Below, in pieces: positions 3,683 through 3,760 of a stretch of DNA of 5,048 bases. Both the position numbers and the translations under genes were made by a program. Within the stretch, counting starts at the first letter, position 1, and each line of letters begins with the position of its first letter. The notes beneath the pieces were generated by a model that was given only the letters and a program-made list of their open reading frames with translations, ran no database searches and was not told the DNA's origin. Origin of the DNA: a virus (taxonomy: Duplodnaviria; Heunggongvirae; Uroviricota; Caudoviricetes); the IMG/VR virus record IMGVR_UViG_2663763286_000012, positions 1 to 5,048 of that record; one strand, given 5' to 3'.

Positions 3683-3711
3683 ATAATACGATATGTACTT
3701 TTAGAATACAA
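3683..3711 (-). promoter_or_regulatory. PR-like promoter for cro (-35 TTGTAT, 17-bp spacer, -10 TATTAT) with overlapping operator site (OR1-like)
   Basis: On the minus strand: TTGTAT (plus 3706-3711), 17 bp, TATTAT (plus 3683-3688). The operator-like 19-mer AAAGTACATATCGTATTAT (plus 3683-3701, minus orientation) overlaps the spacer and -10 and matches a site at pL in 17 of 19 positions. Confidence 0.55.
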
Positions 3712-3741
3712 ACAAAAAATACATCTTGTGCATGGATGGTT

Positions 3742-3760
3742 TTAGTACAGAGCGTAATAA
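3742..3760. promoter_or_regulatory. Operator-like site adjacent to the cI start (OR3-like position)
   Basis: TTAGTACAGAGCGTAATAA matches TAAATACAAAGCGTTATAA at 4505-4523 in 15 of 19 positions, and is related to the PR and pL sites through the shared TACA...CGT core. Confidence 0.45.

Follow-up and report, generated by a model that had tools for sequence, protein, structure and literature searches.

Six candidate operators of the VT2-Sakai immunity type around the cro, cI and pL region of a lambdoid phage

The lysis/lysogeny switch of lambda is built from divergent cI and cro genes around a three-site OR, with a three-site OL at pL. Each operator is a dyad of 17 bp; O1 is placed over the -10 and O3 over the PRM -10, with O2 adjacent to the PRM -35. 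The switch is accompanied by nutL, nutR, cII and pRE. In 434 and P22 the repressor and Cro have homologous helix-turn-helix (HTH) domains with similar recognition helices, and both proteins use one operator set; the 434 operator consensus is ACAA-N6-TTGT. The same kind of switch is found in the Stx-associated lambdoid phages 933W and BAA2326, in which the Koudelka laboratory mapped the operators by footprinting. Three OR sites were found by footprinting in BAA2326, and only two OL sites are reported for 933W.

The closest described system is the VT2-Sakai (Sp5 / Stx1-phage) immunity type. Phages of this type carry six operators, with spacings of 26 and 32-33 bp in OR and of 25 and 33 bp in OL. 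The GenBank record of an Stx1-converting phage, AP005153, annotates 17-bp "putative operators", three in OR and three in OL, spaced by 32/26 bp and 25/33 bp respectively. Yin et al. 2015 list six Sakai-type phage operators in their Table S5 and give their sequences as the same as the Sakai operators of Fattah et al. 2000 (PMC4587872). The same six sequences appear as VT2-SA OR1-3 and OL1-3 in Table S1 of a further paper (PMC10742460). The OR and OL labels are exchanged between these two tables, and we favour the labels of PMC10742460 because the gene order in AP005153 and in the DNA described here agrees with them. The published VT2-Sa sites are sequence predictions, and the binding data on these operator sequences concern only lambda CI, used in the micromolar range. 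The searchable literature yielded neither footprints nor EMSA or reporter results with the cognate cI or Cro on the sites; the footprint search returned other immunity types only (933W, BAA2326 and CP-933P).

The window analysed here is a stretch of 5,048 nucleotides from the virus record IMGVR_UViG_2663763286_000012. It holds a lambdoid immunity region in reversed order, with cro on the minus strand and cI on the plus strand, followed by pL, nutL and IS629. The genes and the structures at their ends are as follows.

410-1786, minus strand: DnaB-type helicase gene
1783-2730, minus strand: O-type replication protein gene
3028-3321, minus strand: lambda-type cII gene
3441-3656, minus strand: cro, 71 aa, HTH_3 family (Pfam HTH_3, E = 4e-12), recognition helix TQGAIGHW
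3768-4427, plus strand: cI, 219 aa from ATG 3768, with an HTH N-terminal domain carrying TQGGIGHW and an S24 autocleavage and oligomerisation domain (Pfam HTH_3 and Peptidase_S24, E = 9e-29)
4458-4479, plus strand: terminator-like hairpin with T-run, 3' of cI, between cI and OL (terminator scan)
4637-4651: boxB hairpin of a lambda-type nutL, 3' of pL

The stretch from cro through cI to pL is 99% identical to that of the coliphages Dewey, Louie, vB_EcoP-720R6 and others; in Dewey the 99% identity extends across positions 3400-4667 of the window. It is 93% identical to the Stx1-converting phage, to Stx2 phage II of O157:H7 Morioka V526 and to Sakai-type Stx2a phages. The immunity region that these Stx phages carry is also that of phages which are not Stx phages, such as Dewey, Louie, vB_EcoP-720R6 and phi458. 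Two features of the window differ from the VT2-Sakai-type relatives. AP005153 has about 1.5 kb of extra ORFs between cI and OL, whereas the window has none and OL directly adjoins the cI terminator, and the IS629 between nutL and N is a feature of the window. The Klebsiella phage phiKp_30 (LC768498.2) has an OR with 95% identity, so this immunity module also occurs outside Escherichia.

A palindrome-constrained de novo motif search was run on the two intergenic regions with no prior input. It returned a 17-bp dyad with the consensus AAGTACAAATTGTACTT and recovered six near-palindromes of roughly the form A-A-G-T-A-C-A-N3-T-G-T-A-C-T-T. They are grouped in threes: OR1-3 lie between cro and cI, and OL1-3 lie at pL, on its upstream side. 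The sites are listed here together with the promoters that they overlap or adjoin.

3684-3700: OR1 (AAGTACATATCGTATTA, minus-strand reading), extends over the spacer of PR and all but 1 nt of its 6-nt -10
3717-3733: OR2 (AAATACATCTTGTGCAT), centre at 3725, upstream of the PR -35
3743-3759: OR3 (TAGTACAGAGCGTAATA), overlaps the predicted PRM -10
4506-4522: OL3 (AAATACAAAGCGTTATA)
4539-4555: OL2 (TAGAACATTTTGTATTG), reaches 3 nt into the pL -35
4564-4580: OL1 (AAGTACAAATCGTACTA), the most symmetric site, extends over the spacer of pL and all but 1 nt of its 6-nt -10
3683-3711, minus strand: predicted PR for cro, -35 TTGTAT (3711..3706), 17-bp spacer, -10 TATTAT (3688..3683)
3732-3760, plus strand: predicted PRM for cI, weak -35 ATGGAT, 17-bp spacer, -10 TAATAA (from reading the sequence)
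4553-4581, plus strand: pL, a strong promoter, TTGACC, 17-bp spacer, TACTAT (promoter scan)

The half-sites follow the pattern (A/T)-A-(G/A)-T-A-C-(A/G). Position 5 is A and position 6 is C in all 12 half-sites, position 2 is A in 11 of the 12, position 4 is T in 9 of them, and position 7 is A or G. The spacings are 33 bp from OR1 to OR2, 26 bp from OR2 to OR3, 25 bp from OL1 to OL2 and 33 bp from OL2 to OL3, and OR2 is 822 bp from OL2. A weight matrix was built from the six window sites. It scores OL1 highest (20.2), followed by OR1, OR3, OL2, OL3 and OR2, which makes OR1 the best-scoring site of OR. The motif search also proposed a seventh site at 4523-4539 (AAAAACTAATTATATTT). This candidate was rejected because it is without the TAC/GTA cores and because no other part of the OL alignment described below is as variable.

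On comparison with published sequences, we put the probability at about 0.9 that the six sites serve as operators in a lysis/lysogeny switch of the lambda kind, with immunity of the VT2-Sakai (Sp5 / Stx1-phage) type. They lie in the same order as the VT2-Sakai operators and at places homologous to those annotated in AP005153, and each closely matches its VT2-Sa counterpart: OR1, OR2 and OL2 at 15/17 positions and OR3, OL3 and OL1 at 16/17. The one or two base changes per site fall mostly at centre or edge positions, and in OL2 they are confined to the centre. The lambda operators (TATCACCGC-type 17-mers) reach only 9-10/17 in their best match to the window, which is background, although the lambda half-site TATCAC has A2, A5 and C6 in common with the window half-sites. 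Operators of the 933W and BAA2326 types likewise match the window sites at background level, and the repressors of those two phages are unrelated to that of the window. The recognition helices and operator sequences of 434 and P22 also differ from those of the window, where the 434 pattern is not seen. A preliminary description of this DNA had proposed that cI and Cro share an operator set distinct from that of lambda. Comparison with the known immunity types supports operators distinct from those of lambda and identifies the set as the VT2-Sakai type. The set is already in GenBank annotation and in the literature, and it is an ordinary, known feature.

The preliminary description had divided the sites differently. 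It saw two asymmetric 19-bp sites in each region, with the core AGTACA-N4-CGTA, and a separate half-site, the octamer AATACAAA at 3705-3712. Four mutually similar 19-mers do exist where it placed them and with the identities that it gave: 3683-3701 on the minus strand (AAAGTACATATCGTATTAT) and 4563-4581 on the plus strand (AAAGTACAAATCGTACTAT) agree at 17/19 positions, and 3742-3760 (TTAGTACAGAGCGTAATAA) and 4505-4523 (TAAATACAAAGCGTTATAA) agree at 15/19. AATACAAA does resemble a half-site, and in PR and pL alike the -10 hexamer makes up the final 6 nt of the 19-mer, as had been said. It is this hexamer at the 3' end that carries the similarity beyond the 17-mers, up to 19-mers. The real unit, which encloses the cores of the 19-mers, is a dyad-symmetric site of 17 bp with an invariant A5-C6 in each half-site. 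The gap in the core is N3, since the N4 form has 0 matches and the N3 form has 3. The asymmetry seen in CGTA is not a family trait, for position 11 is T in VT2-Sa OR1, which reads TGTA. There are three sites in each region instead of two. OR2 and OL2 had been overlooked, and both are recovered de novo, conserved and published. Motif discovery over the two regions, which had been proposed as a check, did recover the sites, as six 17-bp dyads instead of four 19-mers.

The octamer AATACAAA coincides with the PR -35 (ATACAA on the plus strand, 3706-3711), and as a half-site it is not conserved. Base 3708, in its core, departs from the majority in 18/37 distinct homoimmune sequences, and is mostly G there against A in the window. 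With G at 3708 the hexamer becomes TTGCAT, so that the invariant A of TAC is lost while the TTG of the -35, the only part of this hexamer that is conserved, is kept. AATACAAA was rejected as an operator element because this other common variant loses the core A. The claim that PR is built like pL holds for O1 and the -10 and fails for the placement of O2: OL2 overlaps the pL -35 and is 25 bp from OL1, whereas OR2 lies beyond the PR -35 and is 33 bp from OR1. Taken together, an arrangement of two asymmetric sites per region with a separate half-site is very unlikely.

As a control for chance similarity, both AT-rich intergenic stretches were themselves shuffled 1000 times, with dinucleotide content preserved. 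The preliminary description had allowed that matches of 15-17 of 19 positions might be common by chance in such DNA. This is not so for the 17/19 match, which arose in 0 of the 1000 local shuffles. The best match reached at least 15/19 in 9% of them, and the 15/19 pair by itself is therefore marginal. Overlapping 19-mer pairs at or above 15/19 number 11 in the window against a shuffle mean of 0.18. The likelihood of the palindromic motif was equalled by 3/60 shuffles, so the window alone is only suggestive. Pattern searches against shuffles of the whole window had looked highly significant; these were discounted and replaced by the local shuffles, since the pattern had come from the data itself and the whole window is far less AT-rich than the intergenic regions. 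The decisive support for the sites is the comparison with relatives, not the window alone.

For this comparison, 80 IMG/VR loci and several genome contigs encoding 99-100% identical Cro were collected; the 80 IMG/VR loci carry a Cro that is 100% identical. Distinct sequences were compared, 37 for OR and 38 for OL, the OL set including a diverged Enterobacteriaceae prophage (L007). Half-site positions were taken as 2-7 and 11-16 of each 17-mer. Among the 37 OR sequences, 2/36 half-site positions vary against 26/60 other intergenic positions (Fisher p = 5e-5), and 0/18 positions of the TAC/GTA cores vary. In OL the counts are 11/36 against 60/84 (p = 4e-5), and many of the 11 half-site variants are single changes, several of them found only in L007; the relatives share ancestry, so fewer independent events lie behind these counts than the distinct sequences suggest. 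Variation within the sites lies at the centre (positions 8-10) and the outer edges. In the 37 variants the half-sites of OR1 are invariant except for position 7/11 (A or G), and OR2 varies at two central positions only. OR3, OL1 and OL2 are kept in relatives, and OL3 is conserved relative to its flanks. A scan of 410 kb of related loci with the matrix gave matches almost only as triplets, spaced by 26 + 31-34 bp or 25 + 30-34 bp, across 85 loci.

Two more distant relatives gave an independent line of evidence. The Cro of L007 is 80% identical, and that of an Erwinia phyllosphaerae prophage (L008), in which the C-terminal domain of cI is not lambda-like, is 76% identical. Both keep [T/S]QG[GA][IV]GHW in cI and in Cro, and both have three OR sites, 26 and 33-34 bp apart, as well as OL sites, while the flanks have diverged. 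An Avibacterium relative with a 48% identical Cro (L009) served as a negative control: it has a different shared helix, QPRIANYE, and the triplet is absent. The sites are kept in the first two and absent in the third, so the operators travel with the recognition helix.

Two short contigs, JAJXBQ010000280.1 (L004) and JAEZIN010000021.1 (L005), have the same OR and a Cro that is 99-100% identical. They are filed with MAGs of Segatella copri and of Bacillota, and are most likely mis-binned E. coli phage contigs.

These comparisons also bear on whether the repeats are protein-binding sites at all. They might instead be shared promoter elements, namely -10 hexamers and AT-rich spacers, combined with an ancient duplication of OR and OL. 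The similarity of the 19-mers does reach into the -10 hexamers, and the shuffle rates given above for 15/19 matches and for the motif likelihood also speak for such a reading. However, OR2, OL2 and OL3 lie off the -10 hexamers and their half-sites are conserved all the same, while the adjacent spacers are free to vary. Variation at the centre and the edges is the pattern expected of a dyad bound by a dimer. The sites also persist together with the recognition helices in the diverged Erwinia phage and are absent where the helix differs. We consider it highly improbable that the repeats are promoter elements only.

The proteins point to the same operator set. Cro is identical to the Cro of AP005153 at 71/71 residues, and cI is identical to the AP005153 CI at 212/218, with residues 1-46, the whole HTH, unchanged. 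The preliminary description was right that cI and Cro have a recognition helix in common, T30-QGGIGHW-37 in cI and T25-QGAIGHW-32 in Cro. Their HTH domains are 40% identical over 47 residues, and by sequence Cro is a paralogue of the N-terminal domain of cI. This all-helical HTH_3 Cro differs from that of lambda, and the N-terminal domain of lambda cI has diverged from that of the window cI, whose N-terminus is shorter. The C-terminal domain of cI has only 2-4 differences from solved lambda cI chains. The recognition helix of cI begins with Q31, which aligns with Q44 of lambda repressor, and in lambda Q44 contacts the adenine at operator position 2. A reading of A2 by Q31 would fit this contact logic, A2 being present in 11/12 half-sites. 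As to known structures, PDB 28tn_A, a solved "lambda repressor-like protein", matches Cro over 69 residues (E = 4.5e-17) and is a possible template, and P22 C2 is a weak sequence match to Cro.

That these are genuine operators of a new immunity type, their specificity changed from VT2-Sakai by base changes, would suit an OR region only 86.5% identical to VT2-Sakai NC_000902 and the one or two differences in each site, and is scarcely credible given that Cro and the DNA-binding domain of cI are identical to those of AP005153, that the changes lie at centres and edges, and that changes within half-sites use bases of other VT2-Sa sites (A or G at position 7).

One point against the VT2-Sakai-type reading of the sites is that PR and PRM are predicted from weak hexamers. 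A consensus promoter scan of the window returned pL only, with PR and PRM below its threshold. PR was missed because its -35 matches the consensus at only 3/6 positions; in relatives the TTG of this hexamer is kept and the remainder varies. The predicted PR coincides in place with the "putative major rightward promoter" of AP005153. Both hexamers of the predicted PRM are invariant in the 37 variants, and its -10, TAATAA, is separated by 7 nt from the ATG at 3768, so that the cI mRNA would be leaderless. Public records begin cI at the ATG at 3732 (231 aa), a start that would put OR3 and part of OR2 within coding sequence. The arrangement of TAATAA, 7 nt and ATG is also found in the Erwinia relative, and its being kept in both argues for a leaderless cI of 219 aa. 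By this reading of the sequence, cI probably starts at 3768, 12 codons downstream of the start in public records, and the cI start is probably leaderless as in lambda. On pRE transcripts, an AGGA at 3763-3766 might instead serve translation from the ATG at 3774.

The arrangement suggests how the switch may work. By homology, cI dimers would bind the sites through a lambda-like helix-turn-helix. At OR1 and OL1, cI would block RNA polymerase by covering the -10 and spacer of each promoter, PR and pL. OR2 is centred about 43 bp ahead of the predicted start of PRM, a position from which bound cI could activate this weak promoter, as it does in lambda. At OR3, cI would lie across the PRM -10 and hold down its own synthesis. 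Cro would act on the same sites, shutting off PRM and later PR and pL. Because the C-terminal domain of cI is nearly that of lambda, RecA-stimulated autocleavage, tetramerisation with dimer-dimer cooperativity, and looping between OL and OR over the 822 bp are expected. By analogy with lambda, a weak OR2, as its matrix score suggests, would need cooperative help.

The geometry of OR is one point where the window is unlike lambda, for its OR2 does not overlap the PR -35. The spacing from OR1 to OR2 is 24 bp in lambda. The OL1-OL2 spacing of the window, 25 bp, is lambda-like, and the OR1-OR2 spacing, 33 bp in the window and 31-34 bp in relatives, is not, so cooperativity between OR1 and OR2 in the style of lambda is not assured. 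The two short spacings are tightly conserved, with OR2-OR3 invariant at 26 bp even in the Erwinia relative and OL1-OL2 at 25-26 bp, whereas the OR1-OR2 and OL2-OL3 spacings are long and variable in length. We are led to a tentative and rather doubtful idea, namely that spacing rewires cooperativity, with OR2-OR3 as the cooperating pair of OR and a hair-trigger switch as the result, and that mixed oligomers with lambda cI may form. If cooperativity needs about 24-26 bp, PRM would be repressed almost once it is activated, and repressor levels would be kept low. This would be a hair-trigger like that proposed for 933W and BAA2326, reached by geometry and not by site affinities. The switches of those two phages rest on direct binding data, and the window sites are known from sequence comparison. 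Mixed oligomers with lambda cI, which the nearly identical C-terminal domain could allow, might explain the cross-immunity reported between lambda and VT2-Sakai.

Several other features of the window recall lambda, which likewise has nutL, nutR, cII and a site of the pRE kind. Within the O gene, at 2173-2315, a 12-bp unit (..CATGTGCGG..) recurs about 8 times in two blocks; the lambda origin likewise lies inside O, and by that analogy these repeats are probably iterons recognised by the O protein. At the 5' end of cII, a TTGC-N6-TTGC sequence (TTGCGTTTGTTTGC) at 3299-3312 on the plus strand points toward cI and resembles the CII-binding site of pRE in lambda. Downstream of cro, positions 3401-3415 (GCCCTTTTTCAGGGC) read, in reverse complement, as a boxB of the lambda nutR type. 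On the other side, GGCTCTTAAAAATTAAGCCCTGAAGAAGGGC at 4621-4651 corresponds to a lambda-type nutL, with a boxA-like sequence and the boxB hairpin. The terminator scan had called this hairpin as a terminator on the minus strand; that call was rejected in favour of an N-utilisation site. An Rfam scan of the window found no family at its gathering score.

The left end and orfA of IS629 occupy 4668-5048. They are 99% identical to copies in Stx phages, one of which is annotated as IS629 OrfA. The insertion lies directly after nutL, between pL/nutL and the place that N has in phage Dewey, and it probably makes the pL operon polar or defective. The junction of nutL and IS629 is absent from every complete E. 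coli genome of the collection, where matches end at 4667.

For the window, the outcome is annotation and not discovery: six operators, three promoters and a start of cI that is probably leaderless. The VT2-Sakai immunity type, to which the six sites most probably belong, controls the induction of the Stx2 prophage in E. coli O157:H7 Sakai, as well as that of many other coliphages, and the coordinates of its operators matter for predicting superinfection immunity and the induction of toxin phages.
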